From assembly GCA_041648665.1 (NCBI GenBank), contig JBAZOP010000003.1, forward strand, positions 69,082-133,081: a stretch of 64,000 bases of DNA, in the 5' to 3' direction. This document shows, one piece after another, positions 4,021 through 48,760 of this stretch. Within the stretch, counting starts at the first letter, position 1. Every line of letters starts with the position of its first letter. The notes beneath the pieces were generated by a model. The model ran no database searches, was not told the origin of the DNA, and saw only the letters and a program-made list of their open reading frames with translations. The translations under genes and the position numbers were made by a program. Source of the DNA: a bacterium. GTDB taxonomy: Bacteria > UBA10199 > 2-02-FULL-44-16 > JAAZCA01.

Positions 4021-4049
4021 TGCTTACAAGCGGCCCAGTTCCAGACTTT

Positions 4050-4289
4050 CTAGTATCTACGGCCTTTGATTGTTTTGGGGCGGGGCCTGGGGACCATCAC
4101 GCGCTCGATCCTGCGGGCCGTTGTGGGCATGGCTTCGTACGCGTCGGACTGCACCTTCGAGCATGCCTCCAGCTCCGGGAGCCCGAGCTTGTTGACGGCT
4201 GGCGTGTACCACCAGTTGTGGGCCTTCAGGGCGATGATCTTGCCAGTCTCGTCGATGATGCCGCCGTCGTACTTGTGGAGCGTCGTCAT
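4050..4289 (-). CDS. hypothetical protein (~79 aa)
   Basis: ORF 4050..4316 trimmed to MTTLHKYDGG...; ATGA overlap with the next gene at 4286-4289. Confidence 0.5.
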   Translation of the reverse strand: MTTLHKYDGGIIDETGKIIALKAHNWWYTPAVNKLGLPELEACSKVQSDAYEAMPTTARRIERVMVPRPRPKTIKGRRY

Positions 4290-33801: not shown

Positions 33802-34017
33802 TCAGTCGCTCTTGCCGATCAGCTGTTGAACCATTTTGGTCAGGCAGTGGTCCGAGCGAAAGCTCTTCACCCGACGCCAGCTCTGCTCGCCCATGGCATC
33901 CAAGCCTCCCTCTTCAATCGAAAGGTAGCCCGATTCCTCTAGCACGACACGACACAGCGTTTCCACCTCGTGGTTCACCTTCGACGCGTACCCATGAAAG
34001 AGAAGTTTTCCAGTCAT
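33802..34017 (-). CDS. hypothetical protein (71 aa)
   Basis: ORF track entry. Confidence 0.45.
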   Translation of the reverse strand: MTGKLLFHGYASKVNHEVETLCRVVLEESGYLSIEEGGLDAMGEQSWRRVKSFRSDHCLTKMVQQLIGKSD

Positions 34018-34023
34018 TTTGTA

Positions 34024-34221
34024 TCACCTTTTGCACCCGGCTCCTCGGGGTAGGACCCACACACCGTCCCGCCTACGCACGAGAAACACTTCCTTCATCA
34101 CACGCCAAGCACGCCCACACCACCGACTCTGCTCTGGCGTCATTTGCGAGTCTGTTATCCTTGGGTCAGTGAGCGCCAACAGGATCTGCTGGCATCGCTT
34201 CAAGTCGTTCGGTGGTTTCAT
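34024..34221 (-). CDS. small hypothetical protein
   Basis: Trimmed to MKPPNDLKRCQQ... Confidence 0.35.
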   Translation of the reverse strand: MKPPNDLKRCQQILLALTDPRITDSQMTPEQSRWCGRAWRVMKEVFLVRRRDGVWVLPRGAGCKR

Positions 34222-34547
34222 CGTGGATTCTCCTTGTGCTGCCGCCACGCCCTCTCGAACTCTGCCTTCTCGCGCTCGGCCCGCTTCTGCTTCTCGCGGT
34301 CCTCTGCCACCGTGCGAGCCAGTGACTCTACCCGCTCCAGATTCTTCAGCACGATCTCGTTAGCTGCTTTCGTCACCGCGTCACGAAGAATCTTCGCACA
34401 CCCCTCGCAGGTGTCGTTGATAACGGGCCACTTGCGCGTCTCGGGTATGTCCCAGCCCTCGAAGTTGGGGCTCGTCTGGAACGAGCCGTAGTTTTCCGTC
34501 GCGTCACTGAGCCGCCTAGCGCACACGCCACAATAGCAAGCCATCAC
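34218..34547 (-). CDS. Cys-containing protein (109 aa)
   Basis: CYCGVC and CEGC motifs. Confidence 0.5.
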   Translation of the reverse strand: MMACYCGVCARRLSDATENYGSFQTSPNFEGWDIPETRKWPVINDTCEGCAKILRDAVTKAANEIVLKNLERVESLARTVAEDREKQKRAEREKAEFERAWRQHKENPR

Positions 34548-34548
34548 G

Positions 34549-34770
34549 TCACCTCGGCAGTCCGAATACCTCCAGCGATCCTTCGTAGTCGCGCCCGGTC
34601 AGGTACCTGAGCGACTCCTTGGAGACCGGGCACCCCATCTTCCAGTCCCACACCCGCTGCGTCCTCGGACCCCAGATGCCATCGACAGCAATCTGCTCGT
34701 CGGCGTGCCACGAGGTGTCGAACTCCATGCGGTTGAGGATGCCCTGAATCTCCTCTACGATGGCGATCAT
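34549..34770 (-). CDS. peptidoglycan-binding domain (PG_binding_1-like) protein
   Basis: IAVDGIWGPRTQRVW matches the DGxxGxxT core of PG-binding domains. Confidence 0.5.
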   Translation of the reverse strand: MIAIVEEIQGILNRMEFDTSWHADEQIAVDGIWGPRTQRVWDWKMGCPVSKESLRYLTGRDYEGSLEVFGLPR

Positions 34771-35468
34771 GGTCCGAACCCATCCAATCTCGGCCTGATC
34801 CCGGCCTTCCGCAGCTGATCGAACGCTGTTTGCGCGCACCTGTGCAGAGTGCCGATCCGTTCATCCGCAATCCGCAGCTGGTTCCGCAGCGCCTGATTCT
34901 CCGCCGCGGCATCCTCGCGAGAAGCAATCTCCTTCTCGTACAGGTCGGACGCTTCGTGCGCGATCTTCTTCCACGCCGCGAGCTTCGATCCGTAGATCGA
35001 CTCGGCGTCGTTGACGAGAGCGCCGATGCGCGCCTCGATCTGCTCAACGGTTGCGGTCGAGGGGCTCAGGTTCGCAGCCCTGGCGAACCGCTCGCGCAGA
35101 TCCGACTCGGGCTGGCGGACGGCGAAAGAATAGAGCCTGCCTTCGGGGATGTCCGTCAGATCGAACGTGGACACCATGACGTGAGCGTTCCACTCTTCTC
35201 TCGTCGGGTTCTCGACGAGCACTGTGACCCTTTCTCCAGTTCGCAGGACAACCGGCTCGTATGTGCGGTAGCAATCCCTGTCAAAGACGGTGCGACGACC
35301 CGCTGTGACAGTCCGTATGTAAAGCGCGCCGGTCGTCTCCCATACATCAACCAGCTGCACGAGCTTCTCAGCGACGTACATAAGAGTCTGTGACCCACCA
35401 GATGGGATCGGGCTCGAACTGGTCAGATTGTGCTCGGACATTCTGCCTCTCATGTTCTCGATCTTCAT
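34767..35468 (-). CDS. hypothetical protein (~233 aa)
   Basis: Trimmed to MKIENMRGRM... Confidence 0.55.
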   Translation of the reverse strand: MKIENMRGRMSEHNLTSSSPIPSGGSQTLMYVAEKLVQLVDVWETTGALYIRTVTAGRRTVFDRDCYRTYEPVVLRTGERVTVLVENPTREEWNAHVMVSTFDLTDIPEGRLYSFAVRQPESDLRERFARAANLSPSTATVEQIEARIGALVNDAESIYGSKLAAWKKIAHEASDLYEKEIASREDAAAENQALRNQLRIADERIGTLHRCAQTAFDQLRKAGIRPRLDGFGP

Positions 35469-36022
35469 GATCTTACCTTCCCCTTCGGCGTTGTCGCCAC
35501 TTCGTGTAGCCTCCGCCAGATCGCCTGCGCCTCCCCGAGCGGCATCACGCGGTGTTCGCATCCGTTCGGAACCCCCAGAACCGACATCTGCGTATCGGCG
35601 GCCATCCTCGACGGAAACATGAGCACCTTGTCGTGTAGAGTCGCCCAGCCGCCTCCGATGTACCACAGCCACTCGCCGTTGTGTGCCTTCTGGACACGCC
35701 CTAGCACCCACGGCTGGCCAATCTCGTCATCGACTTCCTCGACCGGGGGCTCAGCCGTGGTCTTCTCGTCAGGGACACGGATCTGCTGGAAGTCGAGTCT
35801 GCGCAGGTAGTGCGTATCGCTGCTGTAGCGGGCCTTCCCACTGACACGAAGTCGGCCAACACAGGGCTCCCCTGGCTTCGCGCCGCAGCACTTGCACGTC
35901 ACGTACGCCACACAGACGTGCGTGCGCATGTAGCGCCCCCGCTCGTTGGGCACCACGACGAACACCATGTTCTTATGCCCAGCGGCGATGATCGGAGCGG
36001 AAGGGTACGGTTTCTTAGTCAT
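35465..36022 (-). CDS. hypothetical protein (185 aa)
   Basis: ORF track entry; protein-like translation. Confidence 0.55.
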   Translation of the reverse strand: MTKKPYPSAPIIAAGHKNMVFVVVPNERGRYMRTHVCVAYVTCKCCGAKPGEPCVGRLRVSGKARYSSDTHYLRRLDFQQIRVPDEKTTAEPPVEEVDDEIGQPWVLGRVQKAHNGEWLWYIGGGWATLHDKVLMFPSRMAADTQMSVLGVPNGCEHRVMPLGEAQAIWRRLHEVATTPKGKVRS

Positions 36023-36031
36023 CTCGACGCC

Positions 36032-36331
36032 TCAATCGTAGTACGCCACGCTCAGCATCTTGTAGAGAGCGAACGGAACACCTTGTTCCAGCATGTACCC
36101 CACAACTCTCTTGCCAACCATCTCGTCCCTGTCGCGGGCCTTGGCAAAGACGCGAAGCATGTGCGCCTGCCACAGCGTTGGGCTCAGCTCCCCGCGCTCC
36201 CACTTCGAGACGGTCATCTCATGCACGCCGAGAAGCTGTCCGAGCCTCGCCTCCGTCATGGAGAGAGCTTTGCGCAACCGGGTGATGCCCCTTGGGCGCA
36301 TGCTGAAGGTGGTTTCTGTGAAGGTCTTCAT
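36032..36331 (-). CDS. XRE-family HTH transcriptional regulator
   Basis: LSMTEARLGQLLGVHEMTVSKWERGELSP is a canonical HTH_XRE. Confidence 0.6.
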   Translation of the reverse strand: MKTFTETTFSMRPRGITRLRKALSMTEARLGQLLGVHEMTVSKWERGELSPTLWQAHMLRVFAKARDRDEMVGKRVVGYMLEQGVPFALYKMLSVAYYD

Positions 36332-36639
36332 GACTTCTCTACCGGCACCTGGGCTCGCAGCCTGGGGATAGCCAGTTCGCAAGTCCGCAATCCGACCGCT
36401 AAAGGCATGGGCAACTTCTCGATCCCACCGATCGAGTTCACGTACTCGCGAGCCTTCTTCGTGCAGCGCTCCAGATCGCCCATCTCCCGCTCGCGCTCTG
36501 GAGTGCCGGGCGCAGTGCCCTGCGCAGCCAACAGAAGGTGCATCTTCGCTTCCGCCAATAGATCAACCACGCGGAGCAACTCAGGTGTGAGTTTCACGGC
36601 TTCACCAGCCGCAAATGCGTCTTCGCCGCCGCCATCCAC
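36328..36639 (-). CDS. hypothetical protein
   Basis: ORF track entry; moderately protein-like. Confidence 0.35.
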   Translation of the reverse strand: MDGGGEDAFAAGEAVKLTPELLRVVDLLAEAKMHLLLAAQGTAPGTPEREREMGDLERCTKKAREYVNSIGGIEKLPMPLAVGLRTCELAIPRLRAQVPVEKS

Positions 36640-36842
36640 TTGGCGATCTGCTGATCGGCCTCCCGCTCCACCTCGTCCTTGGTCTCGTCATCGAAGGCCG
36701 CGGCGTAGATGACCTCCAGTGGGTGTTTCAGATCGTACTCTTCCCCTCGCGCGAGCACGACCTTCTTGGCGATCTTGGTGACGCTGTTCCAGTACACAAC
36801 GAGTTCGCGTTCCCCAACGGCTGCAAGTCTGACGAATGCCAT
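36594..36842 (-). CDS. hypothetical protein (~82 aa)
   Basis: Trimmed to MAFVRLAAVGER... Confidence 0.4.
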   Translation of the reverse strand: MAFVRLAAVGERELVVYWNSVTKIAKKVVLARGEEYDLKHPLEVIYAAAFDDETKDEVEREADQQIAKWMAAAKTHLRLVKP

Positions 36843-36853
36843 ACTTCCTCCGT

Positions 36854-37084
36854 TCAGCAGGGAGCGCAGCCAGGGTGAGTAGGGCAGTACACCTCGCACT
36901 CCTGCGCGTCCTCCTCCACGGCGTCCTCGTCCGACGCTTCCTCAGACCCAGCGTCCTCCTGCTGGGCGTCGGGCGCAACCTCGCTCTCCGCCTCCCCTGC
37001 GTCGGGCACCTGATCCCCAGAGCCGATGTTCACCGACCCGCCGCATGCGGCCAACAAAACCAACAACCACCCGTACCTGATCAT
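36854..37084 (-). CDS. acidic lipoprotein (76 aa)
   Basis: Signal peptide and lipobox LLAAC; D/E-rich mature part ending in CPTHPGCAPC. Confidence 0.5.
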   Translation of the reverse strand: MIRYGWLLVLLAACGGSVNIGSGDQVPDAGEAESEVAPDAQQEDAGSEEASDEDAVEEDAQECEVYCPTHPGCAPC

Positions 37085-37473
37085 GCCATTCCTCCCTTAC
37101 TGTTGACGCCCATCGCAAACGAGCCCGGGGCCTGCCCAGCGAGTGCTTCCGCCATGTTCACAAAGGGGCACTCGATGCCCTTCACCTTCAGGGCTCCGAT
37201 GAGCTGAAGCCCGATGTGCCCACCCTTCATCAGCTCGCATTCCTGATAGATGATCGCGCGCGTCGTATCTGTCATCCCGGGCTCGGTGCCGTTCCACAGC
37301 GCGGCGGCGTGCGTCCACTGCTTCGCGAACTGCTCCTGCGACATGTTGGGCTTTCCGCAGAGGATCGTGAACTCCTTGCCTTGCATCTTGAGTACGACAG
37401 TAATCTGGTTCGGATAGTAGGCGCAGAAGATGTCGGCGGCAGGGAAGCCCAGCCTGCGCAGGGCCTCCCACAT
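37081..37473 (-). CDS. hypothetical protein (~130 aa)
   Basis: Trimmed to MWEALRRLGF... Confidence 0.45.
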   Translation of the reverse strand: MWEALRRLGFPAADIFCAYYPNQITVVLKMQGKEFTILCGKPNMSQEQFAKQWTHAAALWNGTEPGMTDTTRAIIYQECELMKGGHIGLQLIGALKVKGIECPFVNMAEALAGQAPGSFAMGVNSKGGMA

Positions 37474-37547
37474 TGCGAGCACTTCCCGGATCGGCGCGGG
37501 GATGTGGCGCGGTTGGATGGGTCGAACGCGGGGGCTCTTGGCTTTGG

Positions 37548-37751
37548 TCACGACTTCTTCTCCTGTATCCGACCGTACATCACACCCCACGAGAAGCGCC
37601 AAATAACGAACGACACGCCGCATTCGTCGAACTCAATAGCGAGCCAGCGGATCCAGACGGATCCTTCGATCAGGCGGCACGCGTAAGGCTTGACCCAGAA
37701 GGGCAGATCCAGCACCTGCCATGCCTTGCCGAAGCGGCGGAGCACTTTCAC
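37548..37751 (-). CDS. small Trp-rich protein (67 aa)
   Basis: ORF track entry. Confidence 0.4.
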   Translation of the reverse strand: MKVLRRFGKAWQVLDLPFWVKPYACRLIEGSVWIRWLAIEFDECGVSFVIWRFSWGVMYGRIQEKKS

Positions 37752-38569
37752 GGCTCCACCTCGTAGCTCGTGATCACAACCTCGCCGACCTTACCCCGCT
37801 TGCTGGCGTCGCAGTTCACGTTGCGCCGCGCCGAGACGGAGTGGATGCGGAAGCCGCCGAACATCTCGCGCACCTCGGGCGTGTCGGCCTGCGACAGCAT
37901 CACGTACGCGCCTCGCTGCCTTGCCTCGCAGCAAGACGCGCGGAGCCGCTTCAAGTCCTCCAGGCCGAAGCCGCCCGGCGTGTACGTCGTGAAGTTCGCT
38001 GTCTTGGTTAGAGGCACATAAGGCGGGTCACAGTAAGCCAGCGAGCCCTCCTCCGCGTTCGCTATGATGCTCTGAAAGTCCGCGCACATGATGCGAGCCT
38101 TCTGAAGAGCCGCGGAGCACGCGCGAAGGTTCTCTTCGTCACACGTCGTCGGCAGCTTGTCGTCCTTCCACTTGCCCCACGGCACGTTGAAGCCACCGCT
38201 CTTGTTGACGCGATAGAGGCCGTTGAAGTCGGTGTGATTCAGGTAGATCGTCCTGGCAGCCGCCGCGGCAGGGGACAGATCCGCTGGCTTCAGGCTGCGC
38301 AGCGCGTAGTACCGCTTCTCGTCGATCGGCAACTTCTTCAGCTCGTGAATCACGGAACCCACCTGAAGGGCGACTGCTAGGTAGCAGCTCACAAGCTCCA
38401 GGTTGGCGTCGGAGACGGTTGCGTGCTCCGGTGCCAGATCGAAGAACATCGCGCCGCCGCCAAGGAACGGCTCGTAGTAGTGGTTGAAGCTCTTCGGCAT
38501 CAGCGCGCGAAGCTGTGGGAGAAGCTGGGTCTTCCCACCTGCCCAACGGAGCAGGGGATAAGCCTTCAC
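37748..38569 (-). CDS. dam: DNA adenine methyltransferase (Dam/D12 class)
   Basis: N-terminal YPLLRWAGGK motif and DPPY motif IV (AYCDPPYVPL). GTG start at 38569; the track start at 38731 adds R-rich antisense. Confidence 0.85.
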   Translation of the reverse strand: MKAYPLLRWAGGKTQLLPQLRALMPKSFNHYYEPFLGGGAMFFDLAPEHATVSDANLELVSCYLAVALQVGSVIHELKKLPIDEKRYYALRSLKPADLSPAAAAARTIYLNHTDFNGLYRVNKSGGFNVPWGKWKDDKLPTTCDEENLRACSAALQKARIMCADFQSIIANAEEGSLAYCDPPYVPLTKTANFTTYTPGGFGLEDLKRLRASCCEARQRGAYVMLSQADTPEVREMFGGFRIHSVSARRNVNCDASKRGKVGEVVITSYEVEP

Positions 38570-39081
38570 GTCGCCCCCGTCATGCGTCGGACATGCGTCA
38601 CGAAGTCCTGCCCTGGCCGCACGTTGTGCTTCTCCAGGTAGTGGGCGAAGCCCTCGGGCCACACGAACGTCCCATCGGTCAGGTCTGCGTCGCCCATCTC
38701 CGCGTCGTCGATGCCGCACTTGAAGCGGCACGTGGAGTAACCGAAGTAGCGCTCCAGGACGCGACCCTTGCGCAGGTACGCGATCACCATGCCGCGCTCG
38801 GCAGGATCCCAGGAAGGGTCAACGAAGTCCTTCGGATCCGGAAGAGACAGCAACGATTGCAGACGAACGTTGCCCGCGAGCCACGTGAGAATGCCAAGTG
38901 ATCGAGGAGTCTGGATAGCCTCAATGAGCCTGTGGAAATCCGATGGCTGCCTATCGGCTGACGGCGGTCTCCAGTACCCGATAGCCCGAAGCCCTTGCGT
39001 GCCCTCGATATTGTCGGGGTGCTTAGGCAGAACCATCGACTTAGGCTGCTCGATCACGGCGTCGCCCCCATCTCCTTGCAC
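38566..39081 (-). CDS. hypothetical protein (171 aa)
   Basis: GTGA overlap with dam. Confidence 0.55.
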   Translation of the reverse strand: MQGDGGDAVIEQPKSMVLPKHPDNIEGTQGLRAIGYWRPPSADRQPSDFHRLIEAIQTPRSLGILTWLAGNVRLQSLLSLPDPKDFVDPSWDPAERGMVIAYLRKGRVLERYFGYSTCRFKCGIDDAEMGDADLTDGTFVWPEGFAHYLEKHNVRPGQDFVTHVRRMTGAT

Positions 39082-39254
39082 CCTGCATGCTTGGCCTTGA
39101 ACACCGCTTCCGTCCAGCGCCAGTCGTGGAGACTGATCGGGTACTTGCGGACCTCACCCTTCCCACAACGGGCGCAGCGGATGGCGCACTGATTGTCGCT
39201 GACCATCTCGACCACGCCCCACGTCACCTCGACCGGCTTGCTGTCCTTACCCAT
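39054..39254 (-). CDS. small Cys-rich protein (66 aa)
   Basis: CAIRCARCG motif. Confidence 0.45.
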   Translation of the reverse strand: MGKDSKPVEVTWGVVEMVSDNQCAIRCARCGKGEVRKYPISLHDWRWTEAVFKAKHAGCKEMGATP

Positions 39255-39618
39255 CGACGACCTCCATCACTTCCACGCCCGCCTTCCGCGCTTGGCGCAC
39301 ACAATCCTCCGTGCCTTTTCCGCCCGGGAATGCCACGACGAGATCCGGCTTGCCTTCATCGAGCATGCGCCGGTTGCGGATCGGCCCCGCCGCATACCCG
39401 TCCCGATCCCAGTTGGCGGGGAACGAGAACAGATCGCACTTGAACACGTCTGCGATGTGAAACGTTCGCAGAACCCACTGCGCCGCGAGTGTGTCGGCTC
39501 CGCGTGCTGCGCCGTGGATGAGCGCGTCGATGCCACGCTCCGCATGCAGCTTGTCGAGAACCTCGAACACGCGCTCGCGGTTGGCGTAGTCCCTGCCGCC
39601 GCAGACCAGTACGCGCAT
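39247..39618 (-). CDS. DUF2493/SLOG-like Rossmann protein (~123 aa)
   Basis: Trimmed to MRVLVCGGRDYANRER...; the GGRDY pattern is typical of phage-associated SLOG/DUF2493 proteins. Confidence 0.5.
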   Translation of the reverse strand: MRVLVCGGRDYANRERVFEVLDKLHAERGIDALIHGAARGADTLAAQWVLRTFHIADVFKCDLFSFPANWDRDGYAAGPIRNRRMLDEGKPDLVVAFPGGKGTEDCVRQARKAGVEVMEVVDG

Positions 39619-39845
39619 CACAGTCCAGCCTTCCTGCGCATGGCAGCAACGTTGCTGGCCGACAGCGCCAACGATGCGCGACTCTCCGCCCGCGCTTCTG
39701 GCGACTTCACGGAGAAGCGCCGATACCCGTTGCGGCCAATCGGGCAGTCGTAGCACTCGTACTCCGCTCCGTACCCAAACCCGTAGTCGGGCGTGGTCAG
39801 TCCGACACGCTCGGATCCGCACCAGATGCACTTTACGCCGCTCAT
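39618..39845 (-). CDS. zinc-ribbon protein (~75 aa)
   Basis: CIWCG...CYDCP motifs. Confidence 0.45.
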   Translation of the reverse strand: MSGVKCIWCGSERVGLTTPDYGFGYGAEYECYDCPIGRNGYRRFSVKSPEARAESRASLALSASNVAAMRRKAGL

Positions 39846-40882
39846 CGGATCTCCGTGGCGGAAACCCCGCCCTTCAGGCCGGGGAGGAGCCGCGTCCTCC
39901 ATGCGTTGTAGGTCAGGAAACGCACATCTGCTGGCTTCGCGTTCTGGCAAAGGCGCTTACCATCTGCCACTGCGAGCAGGCTGATCCTCCCAGCCATCGT
40001 CCCGCCAACGTAGACCAACCCGTACTTCGGGTGCGTGACCAGCGATCCTCGCTTCAGTCCACGACTGCGCGTGCCCCCGTACGCCTTGCGAACCCCGCCC
40101 TTCGCGGGCTGAAGCATGTGCAGTTGTCGCCGATGCAGTCGGATCGGCGAGACGCACATCATCCGCTTGTTCTCTGGCAGAATGTGCCCACCGACGTACC
40201 AGTTGGCGAGCACCCAGCTGTCCACGCAGTGCGCCTCGAAGACTTCCGACATCTTCGACTTGGACTTCTTGAGCCCCGCGGCATTGCGCAGCTCGAACGT
40301 CTCCCACCCTTGCTTCACGTGCACGTTGCCGAAACGCTTCAGCTCTTCGTAAAACCACGCCTTACCGACTTCGAGCGGGGAGAAGCTGCGGTTCCACTTC
40401 CGCTGCCACTTCTTGGTCTTCGCCCTGATGTCCTCGACGGCGATGTCGGTGATCGGAAACACCTTCGCGAGCTGCTCGACGATGCGCAACTTCCACTGCC
40501 ATCGTGCCTTCGTGCTCGGAGGAAGACCCCCGCGAGCACGGTTCTTCCTGCACGCCCGATAAGGCGTCTTACGGGACCGACGCGCCCGACGCATGTTGTG
40601 GCGCACCTCCACGGCATCCTTGACGTGCCGCACAGCATCCGCCTGGATGTTGAGCAGCGTGTGCGCCTCAGACTTGACCGTGAACCCTTCCTTCTTCGAT
40701 CCGGGATCGATTCCAACCACAACTGGCTGCAAGACTCGACTAGACGGCTCAACGTTCAGGCGGATGCAGAAGATGCCTCGCTTCCAGAAGGGCGTTGCCT
40801 TCCTCGATGCGACCATCTGCCGCGCTCGCTTTTCCGAGCACGGCATCAATGGCATCCGCTGACTGTCAACAACTGGAACCAC
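39842..40882 (-). CDS. isrB: IsrB (HNH-less IscB-type OMEGA RNA-guided nickase)
   Basis: N-terminal PLMP motif (QRMPLMPCSEK); RuvC-I QPVVVGIDPGSKKEG; Arg-rich bridge helix; RuvC-II IAVEDIR; RuvC-III EAHCVDSW; no HNH insert. Strong positional match to OgeuIscB blocks. Confidence 0.8.
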   Translation of the reverse strand: MVPVVDSQRMPLMPCSEKRARQMVASRKATPFWKRGIFCIRLNVEPSSRVLQPVVVGIDPGSKKEGFTVKSEAHTLLNIQADAVRHVKDAVEVRHNMRRARRSRKTPYRACRKNRARGGLPPSTKARWQWKLRIVEQLAKVFPITDIAVEDIRAKTKKWQRKWNRSFSPLEVGKAWFYEELKRFGNVHVKQGWETFELRNAAGLKKSKSKMSEVFEAHCVDSWVLANWYVGGHILPENKRMMCVSPIRLHRRQLHMLQPAKGGVRKAYGGTRSRGLKRGSLVTHPKYGLVYVGGTMAGRISLLAVADGKRLCQNAKPADVRFLTYNAWRTRLLPGLKGGVSATEIR

Positions 40883-41100
40883 AAATCACCTCAAGAAGAA
40901 TGCCCGTAAGGGCCTTGTGTATGCGCCACTTCGACACCTTCCGGCCGAGGGAAGCGGGGCTAGTGGGGCACCCCGCATGTCGCTCGCCCTGCCACGGGCA
41001 GCCGGTTCGGTTGGCGGCACGGAGCCGCCCTGTCTAGTCAACCGTTTGGTCTCTCTGGTCCGCATGGCTTTGCTTTCCTTCAAGCCCCTGCCTTTAGGGA
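40883..41100 (-). ncRNA. candidate omegaRNA scaffold for IsrB (upstream of isrB)
   Basis: ~220-nt GC-rich region immediately 5' of isrB with multiple potential stems (gccctgccacgggcagccgg, ggcggcacggagccgcc). IscB/IsrB omegaRNAs are encoded at this position. Confidence 0.35.
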
Positions 41101-41311
41101 GGGGTGGTTGACTGTAGTAGTAATGCGAGGAAGGGTGCACTTCCTGCAACTGGCACACGATCTGCGACCGCTCGAACTCGATGTACGGCCCGCGCCCGCC
41201 GATCACAACCCGTCGGTACCCGACCGAGAACAAGACGCCGGTCTCGGTGTAGAGGCGCATCATGGTCGAGCCTTCAACCGGAATGCGCAAGCGAGCAGCG
41301 TAGTCTTGCAT
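40886..41311 (-). pseudogene. ORF possibly disrupted by the IsrB element insertion
   Basis: The first ~70 aa (MQDYAARLRIPVEG...SSHYYY) are protein-like; the remainder is R/P-rich and coincides with the putative omegaRNA. Confidence 0.25.
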
Positions 41312-41868
41312 CAGCCCTCCAGACTCTTCATGCGCAGCACCACCGGCAGCATATCCTTCCGCGCACGCTCCGCCGCCGTTTTCCCAAAGTGCTGCTCGAT
41401 GCCTCTTGCCAGGATCTCAAACCCCCACCGAAGCCTCCACCGTACTCCGTCGTCTGCTGTGAAAATCACGTTGTCGATCCGCCCCACCTCCAGCGGGAAC
41501 AGCCACTCGTGTCTCCAGAGAGCCGCCAGGGAAAGCGGAACCATCAGATCATCCACGTCAACGAGGATGAGCGCTTCGTCGCCGCCATCGGTTGCGGGGA
41601 GGAGCACAACGGTCTGCTCGACGCCGTTGAACTCGACGGAGCCCCTGATCTGGCGGCTGATACCGGGCTCGGCACTGTACCTGTTGGCCACCTCCCGCTG
41701 ATCCCAGACCGACTCCATCGAGCTTGCCAACCCGATCACGTCTTCGAGGGAAGCGTGAACGTCGGCAAAGATAATGGGATCGCCGCATGACATTATGGCA
41801 TCTATGGCAGCGCGGCACGCCATGCTCAGCCCGGTCATGTCGGAGCGGTACACGGGACGCTTTTTCAT
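41311..41868 (-). CDS. hypothetical protein (~185 aa)
   Basis: Trimmed to MKKRPVYRSD... Confidence 0.55.
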   Translation of the reverse strand: MKKRPVYRSDMTGLSMACRAAIDAIMSCGDPIIFADVHASLEDVIGLASSMESVWDQREVANRYSAEPGISRQIRGSVEFNGVEQTVVLLPATDGGDEALILVDVDDLMVPLSLAALWRHEWLFPLEVGRIDNVIFTADDGVRWRLRWGFEILARGIEQHFGKTAAERARKDMLPVVLRMKSLEG

Positions 41869-42266
41869 CGAATCTCCTTCATCCCGAACGGCAGCGTGAA
41901 CCCCTTGGGCAGCACCCACAGGTGGTACAGGTTCGCGTGGTCAACCAACTCGGCTTGCGCTGGAAACACCTCGATTGCGACCCGGTCCTCACCGACGATC
42001 TCGTTCTTGACGCGCTGCAGTTCCTGCCAGGAGCGCACGGGGGCCTCGTCGTTGCGCCGGATCATCAGCCGCTCGACCGTGCCCCACTCCGTCACATGGT
42101 AGACGATCTGCACGACGTACACGTTGTTCTTGAACACCGCCTCGACGTTGCGCAGACTGGGGTACTTCGCCGGGTCGGGCCTGGGCACGCGCTCCCATTC
42201 GGACCAGCCCTGGCGCATGAGCTTGCGTCCGACCGACCTGGAGGCTCTGCGCTGGAGACGGCTCAC
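41865..42266 (-). CDS. hypothetical protein (133 aa)
   Basis: ORF track entry. Confidence 0.55.
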   Translation of the reverse strand: MSRLQRRASRSVGRKLMRQGWSEWERVPRPDPAKYPSLRNVEAVFKNNVYVVQIVYHVTEWGTVERLMIRRNDEAPVRSWQELQRVKNEIVGEDRVAIEVFPAQAELVDHANLYHLWVLPKGFTLPFGMKEIR

Positions 42267-42574
42267 GAGTTTGCTTCCTTCTTGCGTTCAGCGTCCATCT
42301 CCAAGAACCGCTTGCGCTGCCGCTCCCTTTGTGCTTCAGCCTTCGCCTCCGCAGCGTCGTACTCGGCCTTGGTGCAGATCGACCAGTACGTGACCGTTTC
42401 TGTCTCCACGACAGCCAGCTGCGCGCCGCACTTTCGGCATTCCAGCTCGGAGCCCGCCCTCATCTCGTAGTAATCGTCCTGTTGGAACTCGTGGCCACAC
42501 ACGGGGCACGTGACCATCGGGGCCGCCGTTGTGGTGCTCACTGCACGTCCCTCGAAAAGAGCGGGAACATCCAC
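42263..42574 (-). CDS. zinc-ribbon protein (103 aa)
   Basis: CPVCG...CRKCG motifs. Confidence 0.5.
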   Translation of the reverse strand: MDVPALFEGRAVSTTTAAPMVTCPVCGHEFQQDDYYEMRAGSELECRKCGAQLAVVETETVTYWSICTKAEYDAAEAKAEAQRERQRKRFLEMDAERKKEANS

Positions 42575-42756
42575 ATCATGTCTGTCCTATTTCTCCTCAT
42601 CACAGCGTCCAGATGCGCCCTTTGCAGAGCATCCAGGGGCCGCTTGCTATATGCGATCGACGCGGCGACCGCTGCCCTGAGCCGTGCGCGGTTGCGTTCC
42701 ATGTACTTGCGAGCACGCCTGCGCCTCCTGCGGGCTCTGTGGCTACGAGAACTCAT
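42538..42756 (-). CDS. small basic protein (~72 aa)
   Basis: Trimmed to MSSRSHRARRRRR...; ATGA overlap. Confidence 0.3.
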   Translation of the reverse strand: MSSRSHRARRRRRRARKYMERNRARLRAAVAASIAYSKRPLDALQRAHLDAVMRRNRTDMMWMFPLFSRDVQ

Positions 42757-42986
42757 TTGTCGGCTCCGTACTTGTCCAAGTCTTCCTTCGGCCACCATGG
42801 GGGTGCCTGCTTTTTGACCACCAATGCCACCACTTCGGCCCTGAACTCCTTTGTGGCAGCGATCGACCACAGACCTCCATGCACCCATCCGTCTCTGAAC
42901 CCTGCCGAGTAAAGCGCTCTCCCGACGACAGAGATCAGCAGAACGGCTTCGGCAAACATCGCGACGAGCAGCCAAACCCACTGCAT
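42753..42986 (-). CDS. small membrane protein (~77 aa)
   Basis: MQWVWLLVAMFAEAVLLISVV. Confidence 0.45.
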   Translation of the reverse strand: MQWVWLLVAMFAEAVLLISVVGRALYSAGFRDGWVHGGLWSIAATKEFRAEVVALVVKKQAPPWWPKEDLDKYGADK

Positions 42987-43891
42987 CACGCCACCCTCTT
43001 GAGCGCCGTTGCGATCTCCGCCACGCGCTTGAAGTCTCGAACCTCGACAGCCTTCTTCAGCTCGGCCTCCATGCGCCGCGGTTGCCCATCCACGGCACGC
43101 CGCGGTTCGAGGTCGGGACGTTCGCAGTCGAATAGCTCCCGACACACCTTCCAGGTAGCGTCACCGTTCGAGTAGACGCCCCACATGTCGTTCATGTTGG
43201 TGAACACCGTGCCGCGAAACAGTCGCCCGTTCCTGCGCACGTATTTGATCTGACCGTTGAAGATCGGCTTCTTGTCCCGATCCACGTTCTGCCCACAGGT
43301 GCCTTGCCTATATTCCTTTTCTGTTGGCCAACCGCGCTCGTCTCGCTCGAAACGGATCGCCTCCCACCTCTGGTTGAAGTCCGCGAGCGGATCCGCGCGT
43401 GCAGGGTTCCGGCCCTCCATCGCGCGAAGAATCGACAGCGCGAACGGCTCCCCTGGCATCGGAGGCGACTTGCCAAAGTCCATCGTGTACCCGAACTCTA
43501 TCCACTTCTGGATGAGACGCAGCGCGGCCAGCGCTGTCTGAAGCCGGATGAGGCGAGGCATCTTCCGCATCTTGTCGAAGTCGTACCGTCCACCGTTGCG
43601 GTTCTCGACGTTGGCGACGTTCTGATAGAACATCACCTTCATCGTGCGCCCGGACTGCTCCGCGTTGAACTCTAGATCGCCGAGACGCCCATATCTGCGG
43701 CACGGGCCAAGGCACTTGTAGTGCTTCTCGATCTCTGGGTCGCGCGTCACCTTGAACCCGTGGAACTTCATGCGCTCCATCGTGCTCTGGAACGTCTTCA
43801 ACATGGCCACGTCGTCCACGTGCTCTTCCCAGACCATCACGGACGTGTCGTGGATACGGATGCGACCCTCGCGATGCCACCATTGCGTCAT
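42986..43891 (-). CDS. hypothetical protein (301 aa)
   Basis: ORF track entry; protein-like translation. Confidence 0.6.
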   Translation of the reverse strand: MTQWWHREGRIRIHDTSVMVWEEHVDDVAMLKTFQSTMERMKFHGFKVTRDPEIEKHYKCLGPCRRYGRLGDLEFNAEQSGRTMKVMFYQNVANVENRNGGRYDFDKMRKMPRLIRLQTALAALRLIQKWIEFGYTMDFGKSPPMPGEPFALSILRAMEGRNPARADPLADFNQRWEAIRFERDERGWPTEKEYRQGTCGQNVDRDKKPIFNGQIKYVRRNGRLFRGTVFTNMNDMWGVYSNGDATWKVCRELFDCERPDLEPRRAVDGQPRRMEAELKKAVEVRDFKRVAEIATALKRVA

Positions 43892-44214
43892 TGCCCGATA
43901 CCTCGTCTGCTCAGGTTCACCGGCTCGCCATCACACTCCCACAACGGGTAGTTCGGAGGGCCGCATTGATCGATATGGCAGCAGCCGACATTCAGACTTT
44001 CCCACATCTTGCACGAGCCGCAGTCGCGCATGTGGCACAGGTCGTCGAGCGCTTCGAGAAAGCAAAGCGCGCACAGCACGCCCTTCCCGTCCTTGCCCGT
44101 CCACGGCTTGGCGTGTCCGTTGCGCTCAGCGAGGCGAGCATAGCGATCGAAGTCGGCCTGCTCGTGGAGTCGCCCGCACTTCCGACAGTTGGGAGGGATG
44201 CCGTAGGTGTTCAT
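43888..44214 (-). CDS. Cys-rich protein (~108 aa)
   Basis: CRKCG...CALCF...CGSC...CCHIDQC motifs. Confidence 0.45.
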   Translation of the reverse strand: MNTYGIPPNCRKCGRLHEQADFDRYARLAERNGHAKPWTGKDGKGVLCALCFLEALDDLCHMRDCGSCKMWESLNVGCCHIDQCGPPNYPLWECDGEPVNLSRRGIGQ

Positions 44215-44219
44215 CGCGC

Positions 44220-44645
44220 TCACCACCACGGCTCGACTGGACGCCTTGGAATGACCCAATCGCCAACGTCGAGCCCGGAACACGCAGGATTCCCTCTGCT
44301 CGGGCGGGGGAATTTGTAGCGAGCCGTCCCGATCAAAAGCGCCGCTCCGACTCTACCCAAAAGGAAAGCCCCGATCAAGATTTCGCGCGTGGGAGCGTCC
44401 GGGCAGAATGCAAGCGTCTCTGTTTCCACGTCGGCCCCCGGGATACGAACGCGCAGAACCGTTGCTTGTCCGTCAATCCGCTTGCCGTCCGGGCCCCGTG
44501 GCATTCTCGGAGGCTCACAGAGCGTCGCTCCCGCTGCCCTTGCCGCCGACTTGGAGAGGAAGATGCCGCCCGTGAACCCGGTGTCCACAAGGGCATCGCG
44601 CGCGATCTTTCTCACCCAAGAAATCTCGATAGGGATTGTGATCAT
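44220..44645 (-). CDS. retropepsin-like aspartic protease (clan AA)
   Basis: ALVDTGFTGG (D-T-G motif) and the later ILIGAFLLGR. Confidence 0.55.
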   Translation of the reverse strand: MITIPIEISWVRKIARDALVDTGFTGGIFLSKSAARAAGATLCEPPRMPRGPDGKRIDGQATVLRVRIPGADVETETLAFCPDAPTREILIGAFLLGRVGAALLIGTARYKFPRPSRGNPACSGLDVGDWVIPRRPVEPWW

Positions 44646-44848
44646 CGTCCCACCTTCACGACCCACCCATCGGGCAACGTGTACTCGCTCGTTCCTGAGT
44701 CGAACCTCGTTCCCTTCGGCCACACGATCCTCACGCGCTTGTCGGGTTCGTCAGTCACCCCGCAGCCGTGGCTGATCAGCTCCCTGCGCTGCCCCCGCAG
44801 GTTGTCTGCAAGGATCGACGTTGACAGCACCTCGAAGACTTCGTTCAT
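44642..44848 (-). CDS. hypothetical protein (68 aa)
   Basis: ORF track entry. Confidence 0.45.
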   Translation of the reverse strand: MNEVFEVLSTSILADNLRGQRRELISHGCGVTDEPDKRVRIVWPKGTRFDSGTSEYTLPDGWVVKVGR

Positions 44849-45252
44849 CAGTTGAGCGCCTTTCCATCGGCTTCCGACGCAACGATCGTACCGTGCATGA
44901 CTCTGCCGATCTGCGCGTTGGCCCGCAGGCTGTCGAGCACGGCTCCCTGAAGCGTCTCGCGGAGCGCGGTGTCAGCGTGCTTCGAGATCATGACCATCAC
45001 CGGGTCGCCACGCACATCCACAACGGCCAGCGCCTCGTCTGGGAACCGGCCAGCGTCGAACTCCTCGATCGTCACCACCGGCTGGCGTCCCTGCGCAAAG
45101 ACGACAAGGATCGCCGGGTCCGGATCCCCGCTGGCCCGAAGCACCATGACCCGGCACTGGATCTGTTCGAGCACGCTCGCCAGATCGGTTGCCATCCCTT
45201 CCTTGCCTGAAAACATCGCTTTTATTTCTTCCTTGACGCCGCGTCTCGGCAT
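44848..45252 (-). CDS. hypothetical protein (~134 aa), first gene of the leftward operon
   Basis: The ATG at 45252 is preferred over the track's GTG at 45261. Confidence 0.5.
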   Translation of the reverse strand: MPRRGVKEEIKAMFSGKEGMATDLASVLEQIQCRVMVLRASGDPDPAILVVFAQGRQPVVTIEEFDAGRFPDEALAVVDVRGDPVMVMISKHADTALRETLQGAVLDSLRANAQIGRVMHGTIVASEADGKALN

Positions 45253-45261
45253 GTATATCAC
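45231..45261 (+). promoter_or_regulatory. rightward sigma70-like promoter (TTGACG-N15/17-TATATCAC) with an upstream AT-rich tract
   Basis: ttgacgccgcgtctcggcatgtatatcac, located immediately upstream of the RHH gene. Confidence 0.5.
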
Positions 45262-45292
45262 TGATGGTATGTCGCATCCCGGTGAAAGTCAA
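45262..45292 (-). promoter_or_regulatory. leftward sigma70-like promoter (TTGACT-N17-TACCAT), face-to-face with the rightward promoter
   Basis: Minus strand reads TTGACTttcaccgggatgcgacaTACCATcagtgatatacATG; the -10 elements of the two promoters lie ~10 bp apart. Confidence 0.5.
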
Positions 45293-45511
45293 CAGCTCAA
45301 AGGTCTCCAGATCGCTCTTCGTATCTCGCAGGAGATGGATGACGAACTTCTCCAGCTCGCGCAGCGATGGGAGCGCACGATGACGCTCGACACGCGCGTG
45401 GGCAAGACGACGATCGCGCGCGAGGCTCTCAAGCGGGGCATGAGGCTGATCGACGAGGAGCTTACGGCCATCGAGGCGAAGCAAGGGAAGAAGAAGGACG
45501 GCGGGCGATGA
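45269..45511 (+). CDS. ribbon-helix-helix (CopG/Arc-like) DNA-binding protein
   Basis: [38 protein letters not shown]...; a beta-strand followed by two helices, consistent with RHH. Confidence 0.5.
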
Positions 45512-45681
45512 CCTACGAGTACGAGTGCGACGCCTGCGGACACGAGTGGGAGCAGGAACAGAAGATCACTGAGGAGCCGGTGAAGGTGTGCCCGAAGTGC
45601 GGGGAAGAGGCGGCGAAGCGGCTCGTGTCCAACGGCAACTTCGTGCTCAAGGGGAAGAACTGGGCGAGGGATGGGTACTGA
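45508..45681 (+). CDS. FmdB-family zinc-ribbon protein (57 aa)
   Basis: [18 protein letters not shown]...VCPKCGEE matches the FmdB signature. Confidence 0.6.
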
Positions 45682-45868
45682 CGCAAAGCCCACGTGGCTC
45701 CTCCGCGTCGAGATGCAGCACGCTGTCTTCGGTATCATCGTTGCGGCAGACGGCAGCGTGATGGAAGCCGCGCCCATCGCGAAGTGGTCGGTGGGTAAAC
45801 GAGGTCGGGAAGTCGTTCGGTACTTCAGGGAGCGGGGAGCGACGGTAACGGTGCATGGAGGGAAGTAG
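45671..45868 (+). CDS. hypothetical protein (65 aa)
   Basis: ORF track entry. Confidence 0.4.
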
Positions 45869-45871
45869 TCG

Positions 45872-46531
45872 ATGAGCGAGAAGCACGTAAAGATCGTCCG
45901 AGCAGTCCGGGACCAGCTCAAGGCCTACGGCGTCAACAAGGACGAGAGCCTGCGTGACGCTATCGATCGGCTCACGGCTGAGCACGCGCTCGCGACCGAT
46001 GAAGCGCGCACCTACAAGAGGCTCACGGAGGAGGCGCAGCAAGAAGCTGCCCTGGCCCGCAAGACGCGTGACGAGGCAGAGGCAACAGCGATCGTCGCGC
46101 TGGCGAAGGAGAGAGCTGCGACGTTCCAGAACCGCGCGCTGCGAGCGTTCCTTGATCTGGTCATCGAGCGCAGCGGCGCGCAGATCCAGAAGGACTACGC
46201 GGGGGCCCTGGCGGAGATCGATGCGCGGAGCAAGACCATCGCGAAGGAAGCGGGCACGACCCGGCTGGAAGACGACATCCGAGAAGTGGAAGCCCGACGC
46301 GTGACGGCGTTCGCTCAGTCGATGCAGGGGAAGTCGTTCGACACCTACGGGAATCCGCTACCAAACGGCGTGCTTTGTAGAAAGAGGGACTCGTATCTCG
46401 ACGACTGCCTCGCCCCGAACCCGAAACATCCTGGCGCGAATTGCCATCGTCCGAAGACGCACGGTGGCCAGCACCAGAACGGGGACGACGTGTGGGGCGA
46501 TGAACCTGAAAGCAGAAAGGCAGGTGCGTGA
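45872..46531 (+). CDS. hypothetical coiled-coil protein (219 aa)
   Basis: ORF track entry; protein-like translation. Confidence 0.55.
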   Translation: MSEKHVKIVRAVRDQLKAYGVNKDESLRDAIDRLTAEHALATDEARTYKRLTEEAQQEAALARKTRDEAEATAIVALAKERAATFQNRALRAFLDLVIERSGAQIQKDYAGALAEIDARSKTIAKEAGTTRLEDDIREVEARRVTAFAQSMQGKSFDTYGNPLPNGVLCRKRDSYLDDCLAPNPKHPGANCHRPKTHGGQHQNGDDVWGDEPESRKAGA

Positions 46532-46914
46532 TGCCCTGGTGCTACGCAACGTCCAGAGAAGCCGAAGCATGGAACGGAAACTTCGCGACGCGGGAAGAGG
46601 CGATCGAGGAGGGAACTCGCGAGTACGAGGGCGACGCTGATCATTTCTTCGTCGCGTGCGGCGAGTGTCCGGACCCGGCTGATGCCATGCCCCGAGCGCT
46701 CGACATCATCGAGATGATGGTGGAGTGTGCTGGCGACGAATGGGGCGAGATCGCGGAGGACTGGCCCGAAGTCTCTAAGGAAGAGGAGAAGGAACTGGAC
46801 GACATCCTGGAGGGATGGGCACGCAAACACTGCCGCATCTCGTTCTTCATGGTGGATGGCGACAAGGCAGAGGAGGTGCGCATCGCGAAGGCAGAGGAGC
46901 CGAAGCAACCGTGA
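46528..46914 (+). CDS. acidic hypothetical protein (128 aa)
   Basis: ORF track entry. Confidence 0.5.
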   Translation: MMPWCYATSREAEAWNGNFATREEAIEEGTREYEGDADHFFVACGECPDPADAMPRALDIIEMMVECAGDEWGEIAEDWPEVSKEEEKELDDILEGWARKHCRISFFMVDGDKAEEVRIAKAEEPKQP

Positions 46915-47114
46915 GCGCGCGGCAAGAGAGGATGGTCGAAGCCAGACAGCGCCTCGATGACGCGATCGGCGCGCTCTCCGACCTGTACGAGTACGGCCAC
47001 CTGCTCGCCCAGACCGAGCCCGACAAGCTCCTGATGCTGGCTGTTGAGGAGATCCGAAAGGCGCGGGACGAGAAGCGCAACGAGAAGAAAGGCACGCGAA
47101 CACATGGACGATGA
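46911..47114 (+). CDS. small hypothetical protein (~67 aa)
   Basis: GTG start overlapping the previous stop. Confidence 0.4.
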   Translation: MSARQERMVEARQRLDDAIGALSDLYEYGHLLAQTEPDKLLMLAVEEIRKARDEKRNEKKGTRTHGR

Positions 47115-47685
47115 TGCTGCCAACAAGACTCCGGAGCCCGCTCCGTTCGTCTGCCCATACCACAGGCCGTCTCCACCCTGGACATGGCGCGACACCGTAG
47201 GGGTGCTGCTCCTGATTGCCGCTGCGACCGTGCTCACCATCGGCATGTATCACGTCGAAAAGCTGAGCGAGCACTACTGGATCATGTCGGCCTACCTCAC
47301 GAAGCCCATAACGCTGTACTCTTACCGTGGACATCGTGAGTGGGTAGATCGGGATCGGATCGAGAAGTCCGACGCGGACGACTACGGCCAAGCGTACAGG
47401 GAGGGGTACCACGACGGCAAGGGCATGTGCGTGGCCGCGTACAAGAGGACGAAGAGCCCAACTGCGCTCTGGGTCTCGACGGGTTGCATCGACGCCTGCG
47501 CTGCCATGCGCAAGGCGGGGGCTCACGACATGAGTGCACAGACGCCCGGACATGCCTGCGAGTTCTTCTGCGAGGCGGGCAACGAGCGGGGCTACGACGA
47601 TCCGTGGCCGGTTGCGTGCTTCCAGCGGGCGAAGTCGCAGCAGGATGTCCACGACTGCTGGATCGGGGCGGAGAAGAAACAATGA
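47104..47685 (+). CDS. membrane-anchored Cys-rich protein (~193 aa)
   Basis: TM helix VGVLLLIAAATVLTIG followed by a Cys/His-rich domain. Confidence 0.55.
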   Translation: MDDDAANKTPEPAPFVCPYHRPSPPWTWRDTVGVLLLIAAATVLTIGMYHVEKLSEHYWIMSAYLTKPITLYSYRGHREWVDRDRIEKSDADDYGQAYREGYHDGKGMCVAAYKRTKSPTALWVSTGCIDACAAMRKAGAHDMSAQTPGHACEFFCEAGNERGYDDPWPVACFQRAKSQQDVHDCWIGAEKKQ

Positions 47686-47918
47686 CCAGGATGGCTCACC
47701 ACGAAGAGTGTGGCATCTGCCACAGCGACCACATGTGCGAGCACAGGCTTCCGAAAGTCGAACCTCGCCCTCCGAGCATCTGCCCCCTGTGCGGAGAGCC
47801 GATCAACCCGCTCGACGAGATCGAGACCGATCGGGACCGCCTGATGAGGGCAGCGCCCGGCTGCACCACCGATGGGTGGATCGCTCACAAGAGCTGTGTC
47901 ACCAAGGCGGGCACGTGA
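47682..47918 (+). CDS. zinc-ribbon protein (~78 aa)
   Basis: CGICH...CPLCG motifs. Confidence 0.45.
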   Translation: MTRMAHHEECGICHSDHMCEHRLPKVEPRPPSICPLCGEPINPLDEIETDRDRLMRAAPGCTTDGWIAHKSCVTKAGT

Positions 47919-48760
47919 CCACCCCCAAGACAACGTGCGGGACATGCGGCGGTGACTACCCAGTCGGCTCGACATGTCCTAGCTGCGGTCCCCACAACCC
48001 CGGAGCGGCGCTGTTGGGCGCTCTCCGCGGGCACGGCAGTGGCTTGGCACCCGATCCGTTCGAGCAGGCCGAAGCGTGCCCGTACTGCGACATCAAGGAC
48101 CAAGTGATCAAGGCTGCTGGCGAGCAGATCGAGGCTCTCGAACAGAAGCTCGCTGACGCCGCTGCTGATCGCGACAGGAACGCATCGTCCGTCGAGACAC
48201 TGATCCGCGAGATTGGCTACAACCGCGTGCTACCGTATGGAGATGTGGGCGCTGCCGTCGAGTACGCCCGCGGGCTGCACGCGAGGATCGCATCCGACGC
48301 AAGCGACAACGCCAGATTGTGCAATGCCCTCAACCGGGACAAGACCGGGCTGGCGCAGGCGCTCGTGGATGTCCTGACTGAAGCCAGGGGTCGTCGCTGG
48401 CTCGGGCCAGAAGGCGGGTGGGGCTCGTACGAGTGGCAGGAGCACACGACGGACACGCTGCGCAAGGAGATCGAGTGGGCCCTGGACGCCATCGAGACGA
48501 TCGCGAAGAAGGCGCTCGCCACGTCGGGCGCGCTCGCGACGGAGACGCTTCGGCTCACAGCAGAAAAAGCCCGCGCGATGTGCAGAACGGCGGTAGACAT
48601 ACCCAGCCGCTACGGCATGATCGAAGGCGCGCACCATAAGCAGTGGGTCATCGACCAGATGCTTCGGAAGATGCTCGGAGAAGCGGGCTACGCTACTTGG
48701 GTAGCGGGGATGAACGCGGACCCCGACTTCGCACCGTGGGACACGGGGATCGCGCCATGA
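47915..48760 (+). CDS. zinc-ribbon/coiled-coil protein (~281 aa)
   Basis: GTG start; CGTCG...CPSCG...CPYCD motifs. Confidence 0.55.
   Translation: MTTPKTTCGTCGGDYPVGSTCPSCGPHNPGAALLGALRGHGSGLAPDPFEQAEACPYCDIKDQVIKAAGEQIEALEQKLADAAADRDRNASSVETLIREIGYNRVLPYGDVGAAVEYARGLHARIASDASDNARLCNALNRDKTGLAQALVDVLTEARGRRWLGPEGGWGSYEWQEHTTDTLRKEIEWALDAIETIAKKALATSGALATETLRLTAEKARAMCRTAVDIPSRYGMIEGAHHKQWVIDQMLRKMLGEAGYATWVAGMNADPDFAPWDTGIAP

Follow-up and report, generated by a model that had tools for sequence, protein, structure and literature searches.

How does a gene for an RNA-guided nuclease come to lie, with no transposase gene beside it, among the tightly packed genes of a phage-like operon? This question is raised by a 64,000-nt stretch of a bacterial contig (JBAZOP010000003.1, positions 69,082 to 133,081; assembly GCA_041648665.1), hereafter called the window, which carries an isrB gene preceded by a region that encodes a structured RNA of the omegaRNA type. 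Of the relatives of Cas9, IsrB elements are the smallest, and they have attracted interest for genome editing. A first-pass annotation of the window had read the locus as an IsrB-type OMEGA element inserted into a resident open reading frame (ORF), and had considered that the nickase might have been co-opted by its phage-like host. Several questions have to be answered. Is the protein complete? Is the upstream region an RNA, or a part of a protein-coding gene? Where does the element end, and what would its guide recognize? What has happened to the gene beside it? Our answer is that the locus is very probably an intact, non-autonomous IS200/IS605-type (ISC1-like) element composed of an omegaRNA and isrB, co-directional with the genes of a phage-like operon and presumably working by the homing model in which a guide and a target-adjacent motif (TAM) specify the site. 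Its anatomy, its two ends, its TAM-like flank, the structure of its RNA and its catalytic and TAM-reading residues are all observed, and this anatomy fits the published IscB/IsrB model unmodified; the locus is otherwise an ordinary copy of a known mobile element.

The IsrB protein and its RNA scaffold

The isrB gene (39842..40882) lies on the minus strand, as do the other parts of the element and the genes flanking it. It consists of 346 codons and a stop, from a GTG start at 40882..40880 to a TGA at 39844..39842, and a Shine-Dalgarno-like GAGG (40892..40889) is located 6 nt 5′ of the GTG. The product matches the Pfam family RRXRR (PF14239) over residues 2-161 (E=8.4e-37), and no HNH domain was found in it by Pfam. 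Its closest solved structure is that of Desulfovirgula thermocuniculi IsrB (DtIsrB, 8DMB), to which residues 2-325 align contiguously (E=9.3e-36), whereas IscB structures match only the N-terminal ~115-155 residues. The protein was thus rightly called an IsrB rather than an IscB. The motifs that had been picked out by eye in the 346-aa ORF are likewise present as described: a PLMP motif (residues 11-14) that aligns with the N-terminus of DtIsrB, an Arg-rich bridge-helix stretch, RRARRSRK (residues 98-105), and the split RuvC motifs GIDPG (57-61), VEDIR (149-153) and HCVDSW (218-223), in which D59, E150, H218 and D221 are intact and line up with the RuvC motifs of DtIsrB. The alignment to 8DMB extends to residue 325 and thereby includes a C-terminal TAM-interacting (TI) domain, where R310 and Q313, within the conserved motif GKRLCQ, align with R323 and Q326 of DtIsrB, which read G and A of the TAM (PMC9581776). 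Because both these motifs and the TAM-reading residues align with DtIsrB, the window protein is a complete and apparently active IsrB, and by analogy it is predicted to nick DNA on its non-target strand under RNA guidance. The family is a large one, with 5594 homologues at E<=1e-3, and a protein identical to that of the window is already on record. Gene callers start many IsrB homologues further upstream, through the RNA region, which yields versions of ~400 aa.

What does the region upstream of isrB encode? The first-pass annotation had placed a structured RNA at 40883-41100. The RNA is real, although it extends further than was thought: the omegaRNA scaffold is 230 nt long and occupies 40883..41112. 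A covariance-model search, proposed in the same annotation, gave a match to the full-length Rfam HEARO model (RF02033, model positions 1-211) at 40881..41112 with 40.6 bits (E=2.3e-6 in a local search and 6.4e-5 across the 64-kb window, where it is the sole match). Because this score is lower than the Rfam gathering score of 83, the structure was tested independently. An alignment of 14 sequences was made from the window and the upstream regions of 13 relatives (59-88% protein identity), each taken from GTCAAC to the start codon. RNAalifold predicted 36 pairs in it, 29 of them with compensatory changes. When the outer stem and one further hairpin are added to give a structure of 48 pairs, 89.5% of the cells are standard pairs, compared with 28-40% in controls slid by 1-3 columns; both sides have changed in 35 of the 48 pairs, and the structure scores 0.61 for covariation where the slid controls score 0.07-0.11.

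In this structure the outer stem of the scaffold (S1) is formed by GTCAACC (41112..41106) pairing with GGTTGAC. It is followed by the hairpin SL1 (stem-loop 1, 41104..41085), which also serves as a hairpin of the transposon end. Two pseudoknots complete the fold. The nexus pseudoknot, in which CCACU in the SL4 loop pairs with a downstream AGUGG, is paired in 98.6% of cells, and three of its five pairs covary; the adaptor pseudoknot (GCCA/UGGC) is paired in 94.6% and is nearly invariant, so that it is backed by conservation and not by covariation. The terminal hairpin of the scaffold lies directly upstream of the GAGG. The window sequence preserves all scaffold helices tested as well as both pseudoknots, and the arrangement of stems and pseudoknots matches that of a DtIsrB-type RNA (PMC9581776). 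An nhmmer profile built from the 14 RNAs finds a match directly upstream of isrB in 74 of 87 loci; it has a single match in the window, which is not independent evidence because the profile contains the window sequence.

The same stretch can also be read as protein. The ORF 40886..41311 is open for 141 codons and stands on record as a called 141-aa protein (P0121; NCBI "MAG: hypothetical protein WC683_02940 [bacterium]"), and the extension of many IsrB homologues through this region to ~400 aa by gene callers would likewise suit a genuine protein, whose coding constraint rather than RNA structure would then account for the upstream conservation. We regard this as extremely improbable: the substitutions between relatives are compensatory across RNA stems, HEARO matches the region from end to end, and the homology of the ORF to its protein family stops at codon 66, before the RNA begins. 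The part of the ORF at 40886..41112 is a non-genic tail, in which the frame of an interrupted gene is read through the omegaRNA to a chance stop; its 75 codons have no protein homologues besides their own record.

Element ends, target-adjacent motif and guide

The ends of the insertion sequence and its TAM-like flank, which the first-pass annotation had left to be defined by comparison, could both be determined from genomes that carry several copies of the element. Poribacteria, one Competibacteraceae genome and cyanobacteria carry the family in multiple copies, and the boundaries were set in three multi-copy genomes. On the RNA side, copies of the same genome share an identical sequence that starts at (A)GTCAAC or (A)GTAAAG, outside which they are unrelated; in every locus, two copies within one genome among them, conservation breaks off exactly at GTCAAC. 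On the far side, same-genome copies are identical as far as [A/G]TGA and divergent beyond it. Transferred to the window, these limits delimit an element of omegaRNA plus isrB at 41112..39846.

The omegaRNA-distal end (the left end, LE, in the TnpA convention; 39846..39884) consists of a hairpin and a 19-nt tail, both within the C-terminal coding sequence of isrB. The subterminal hairpin, CCCCGGCC-TGAA-GGGCGGGG (39884..39865), sits 19-20 nt inside the boundary and is kept with compensatory changes across loci; the hairpins of a cognate Y1 TnpA would be expected to match CCCCNNCC-TRAA-GGNNGGGG. Directly outside the element lies ATGA (39842..39845; TCAT on the plus strand), the putative TAM. Of 46 loci, 45 have an NTGA at 15-24 nt past the end hairpin, which is ATGA in 38 of them and GTGA in seven. 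Since A and G vary at its first position between otherwise near-identical copies, the motif appears to be a part of the target rather than of the element. The ATGA of the window agrees both with the NTGA that is the TAM of DtIsrB (PMC9581776) and with the motif of GstIscB, TTCAT 5′ of LE, which is ATGAA in the nuclease sense (Meers et al. 2023, bioRxiv 10.1101/2023.03.14.532601).

In the window this ATGA plays two further parts: its TGA is the stop codon of isrB and its ATG is the start of the downstream gene. The same use of a borrowed stop, in which isrB has none of its own and its frame crosses the end hairpin to be closed by the TGA of the TAM, is seen in L084, L085/L086, L004 and L087 (handles of homologous loci), while in the Poribacteria copies, taken from the contrast set L019-L083, isrB ends with a TAA that lies in the end-hairpin loop. 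In a Microcoleaceae genome (L012, ~4029..4100), the ATG of ATGA is the start of a thioredoxin-like gene (MSNSVIVINDEKFETEV...WAGWCGPCK), so that the element stands directly before a host gene.

Which sequence would the RNA recognize? The inferred guide is TTCCTCGCATTACTACTACA (41113..41132), the 20 nt of flanking DNA directly 5′ of the scaffold; its length is borrowed from DtIsrB (PMC9581776). This 20-mer occurs once in the window, and there it is followed by GTCA, the start of the scaffold, and not by NTGA.

Transcription, nicking and homing, like the length of the guide, are modelled here on DtIsrB and GstIscB. A scan of 39000..44500 for promoters and terminators found no promoter-like site, and a bias of IscB elements toward co-orientation with the upstream gene is known (bioRxiv 10.1101/2023.03.14.532601); for these two reasons transcription probably enters from the phage operon, with which the element is co-directional. 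Read-through from the upstream phage genes would yield an RNA composed of the 20-nt guide at its 5′ end and the 230-nt scaffold. IsrB, translated from the GTG at 40882, would bind this RNA, and the resulting ribonucleoprotein would nick, on its non-target strand, DNA in which a match to the guide is followed by NTGA. Such a target would be present only where the element is absent, that is, at the donor joint left after excision by TnpA, where the guide would adjoin ATGA (...CATTACTACTACA directly joined to ATGAGCGG), and also in sibling or co-infecting genomes that have the same junction but lack the element. Recombinational repair of the nick from an element-bearing copy would then allow the element to be retained or to spread. 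The resident copy should be spared because its guide match precedes GTCA instead of NTGA. Transposition to new sites would need a Y1 TnpA acting in trans.

The interrupted gene and the phage-like setting

What was at the site before? Upstream of the element, at 41113..41311, lies a 66-codon 5′ fragment of a resident phage gene, here called X, which bears the family motif GYRRVVIGGRGPYIEF and is truncated at the element boundary. The 141-aa ORF had been suspected of being protein-like only for its first ~70 codons, and indeed its homology to a family of 121-143 aa covers exactly the first 66. The family continues as x-E-[WYH]-R-[ST]...YADY..SPFDL at the point where the window copy (...SSHYYY) enters GTCAAC; in 80 metagenome loci that were kept (L091-L170) the match to a 125-aa query reaches residue 86-125, beyond codon 66. 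The first-pass annotation had named full-length, collinear homologues as the finding that would speak against an insertion; the full-length homologues instead depart from the window ORF after codon 66. The X family, which has an invariant GYRRVVIGGRGPYIE motif and for which no Pfam match was found, is uncharacterized and is common in metagenomic, apparently phage, contigs.

The break in X coincides with the element boundary to within one base, so that the supposed disruption of the neighbouring ORF holds as far as the cut is concerned. A simple insertion does not account for the locus, since the 3′ half of X is absent from the 64-kb window: tblastn with four full-length members matched only the first 66 codons. 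On the other side of the element lies a gene unrelated to X (39618..39845), which starts with the ATG within the TAM and encodes a 75-aa CxxC...CxxC zinc-ribbon-like protein; it is also called as a 75-aa gene in the record of the source contig. No resemblance to the C-terminus of X is seen in the three downstream frames inspected. The sequence just after the element (ATGAGCGGCGT...) was considered as a remnant of X, as it reads N-E-R-R where the family has x-E-[WYH]-R; because the resemblance ends there and the stretch starts a plausible zinc-ribbon gene, the match was treated as chance. With a cut X on the left flank and an unrelated gene on the right, sequence comparison indicates that the locus is not a simple insertion and that a deletion or rearrangement with one end at the element boundary accompanied or followed it. 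Recombination between two element copies in one genome would be the simplest route to the loss of the 3′ half of X.

The closest intact relative of X (69% identical) is in locus L088, where X is followed by a homologue (89% identity) of the 301-aa gene at 42986..43891, which in the window sits five genes upstream. When L088 (1..580) is compared with the minus strand of the window at 43840..44080, homology begins exactly at the ATGA of the 301-aa gene and the genes upstream are unrelated, which makes this gene boundary a mosaic junction. A stretch of ~410 nt at 42575..42985, bordered on either side by a confident minus-strand gene, has no ORF of coding-like codon-position G+C, as judged by a crude gene call.

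The setting of the element resembles that of a phage genome. The window belongs to a metagenomic contig of 134 kb (ERZ27247363 k141_1124820). Its genes are short and densely packed, most of them on the same strand, and tRNAs are absent from it. Matches to PHROG and Pfam include an SNF2 helicase, several DNA methyltransferases, a ParB-like protein, a MazG-like pyrophosphohydrolase and an SLT lysin annotated as a virion or tail lysin, while genes for a capsid or a terminase were not seen in this portion of the contig. A phage-like source is thus reasonable but not proven. The window also contains a second OMEGA-type gene (56243..57904, minus strand), with HTH_OrfB_IS605 at residues 168-201 and a Cas12f1-like TNB at residues 456-521 of its product, whose best solved relative is 'TnpB-like protein L79' (9B0L; E=2e-23); its first ~160 codons look non-genic, no tnpA adjoins it, and the G+C of the surrounding 50-58 kb, 0.57-0.60, is under that of the rest of the window.

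The closest relatives of the window IsrB occupy different sites in similar settings. A copy 70% identical is present in a 485-kb record deposited as an uncultured phage (LR745208.1), and other copies of the 70-75% identity group are in phage-like contigs of 74 kb and 172 kb made up of small unannotated genes. In L087, which is of the 172-kb type, the flanks, when rejoined by hand, form an ATGA stop/start overlap of two genes. The nearest copy of all, L084, is 87.6% identical and lies at a different site, on a 2-kb contig from a separate assembly (ERZ27250602, against ERZ27247363 for the window). The copy in LR745208.1 (L001, 5773..6003 and 6960..7010) has an altered 5′ strand of the outer stem (AGTAAC... 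for GTCAAC) and lacks the C-terminal hairpin region; its isrB stops 17 residues sooner, overlapping a cold-shock-like gene, and no canonical start aligns with the GTG of the window. This copy may be decaying.

Does the phage make use of the nickase? It could serve, for example, as an RNA-guided weapon against competitors with an intact X, or as a regulator. The element is tightly set in the operon, with the stop of isrB overlapping the start of the next gene, its guide comes from a gene family widespread in phage-like contigs, and its closest relatives are in an uncultured-phage record and in contigs of phage-like gene organization, all of which would suit a captured function. Yet the overlap and the embedding in the operon follow from the TAM itself being ATGA, and the hallmarks of a mobile insertion sequence (hairpin ends, TAM flank and flank-derived guide) are all kept. 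As for the weapon, the nearest intact X, that of L088, differs from the guide at four of 20 positions and has no TAM, and no match to guide plus TAM was found in a collection of viral contigs. Co-option, which the first-pass annotation had raised, thus finds no support here, both ends, the flank-derived guide and the TAM being canonical, and we consider it highly unlikely.

Several points weigh against the reading of the locus as a working mobile element. The score of the HEARO match falls short of the gathering score. Apart from its own site, the guide has no target that could be found: the pattern of guide plus NTGA has no match in viral contigs, and in the nearest uninterrupted X (L088) the four mismatches, counted in a hand alignment, are followed by AGGA and not by NTGA. 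No Y1 transposase gene (tnpA) was found among the 79 predicted proteins of the 64-kb window, which bears out the first-pass annotation on this point; according to the literature, most IscB/IsrB elements have none. In no relative do the two flanks adjoin each other, and the donor joint that the guide would recognize is hypothetical for this reason.

Finally, no uninterrupted (empty) site was found in any search made. Phage records yielded no megablast match to 34000..48000, and the upstream 202-aa gene, used as a query against viral contigs, gave nothing. Besides its own record (P0134, on the source contig of the window), no homologue of the 301-aa gene exceeds 49% identity, and the contigs of these homologues (L171 and L172) share no further gene with the window. 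The same is true of 80 viral loci with the downstream YAcAr gene, and the 80 metagenome loci with gene X contain no IsrB, with synteny in L088 only.

Three of these points, namely the missing tnpA, the flanks for which no natural empty site is known and the guide without another match, would also be expected of a stranded relic, an element once mobile and now fixed that neither transposes nor homes and whose ORF and RNA have not as yet decayed. Against such a state stand the full-length ORF with all catalytic and TAM-reading residues, the scaffold with all its helices and both pseudoknots, the two end hairpins and the TAM, all intact, as well as the 87.6%-identical copy at a different site in a separate assembly. 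A relic therefore seems unlikely to us, and an intact non-autonomous element remains the preferred explanation.

The phage-like setting invites a further, more tentative proposal, which on present evidence is rather doubtful: that a lineage made up of the window element and the relatives nearest to it (70-88% identical) travels from one large phage to another by RNA-guided homing, which would take place between co-infecting genomes. Non-restorative homing has so far been theoretical for phages in the literature. In the sub-clade of the window, L084, L085/L086, L004 and L087, isrB has no internal stop and is closed by the TGA of the TAM, and the same ATGA can start the next gene; both traits suit the close-packed ATGA stop/start junctions of phage operons. 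On this proposal, the missing 3′ half of X would be the scar of nick-induced recombination at the element boundary. Whichever way this turns out, the window copy is a well-delimited natural example of an IsrB element, in which the guide, the scaffold, the TAM and the two ends are placed to single-base precision, and its setting and the phage-like sites of its close relatives make it a candidate for testing homing between phage genomes driven by an OMEGA nickase. The points of interest are modest ones: the phage-like setting, the sites of the relatives, the TGA of the TAM as the stop of isrB and the loss of the 3′ half of X.

Comparison with known systems

The best model for the protein and its RNA is DtIsrB (8DMB; Hirano et al. 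2022, PMC9581776). The two have the same order of domains, with PLMP, split RuvC, bridge helix and TI domain and no HNH, the same Arg/Gln pair in the TI domain for reading G and A of the TAM, and the same TAM, NTGA. Their upstream RNAs share S1, SL1 and SL2 as well as an adaptor (SL2-SL5) and a nexus (SL4-3′ region) pseudoknot, and in both a Shine-Dalgarno-like sequence is placed at the 3′ end of the scaffold, right after the terminal hairpin. They differ in that the sequences are distant (E=9e-36), the window scaffold is ~230 nt as opposed to 262 nt, the window element resides in a GC-rich phage-like contig, and the window IsrB is extended at its C-terminus by 20 residues, whose codons cross the end hairpin, the ORF being closed by the TGA of the TAM.

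For donor-joint cleavage and homing, the model is the ISGst5 IscB element of Geobacillus stearothermophilus (Meers et al. 2023, bioRxiv 10.1101/2023.03.14.532601). Like the window element, it is a non-autonomous IS200/IS605-type element with an omegaRNA at the end opposite the TAM, a guide derived from the flank and co-orientation with the upstream gene. However, GstIscB has an HNH domain and makes double-strand breaks, whereas the window IsrB is predicted to be a nickase only, and the Geobacillus host supplies an active TnpA, whereas none was found in the window. As to the RNA family, the window scaffold matches HEARO (RF02033) from end to end and has the same outer stem, first hairpin and core helices, but it misses or replaces an internal segment of the model.

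IsrB homologues have also been found in phage genomes, with identities to the window protein of 70% in LR745208.1, 44% for gp1 of Bacillus phage AgentSmith and 33% in Microcystis phage LMM01, although in all three the genes flanking isrB are unlike those of the window. In AgentSmith, a HEARO match upstream of the homologue scores 46 bits, likewise under the gathering score. The RNA of LR745208.1 has scaffold sequence in common with the window, while its scaffold 5′ stem and C-terminal hairpin region look degraded.

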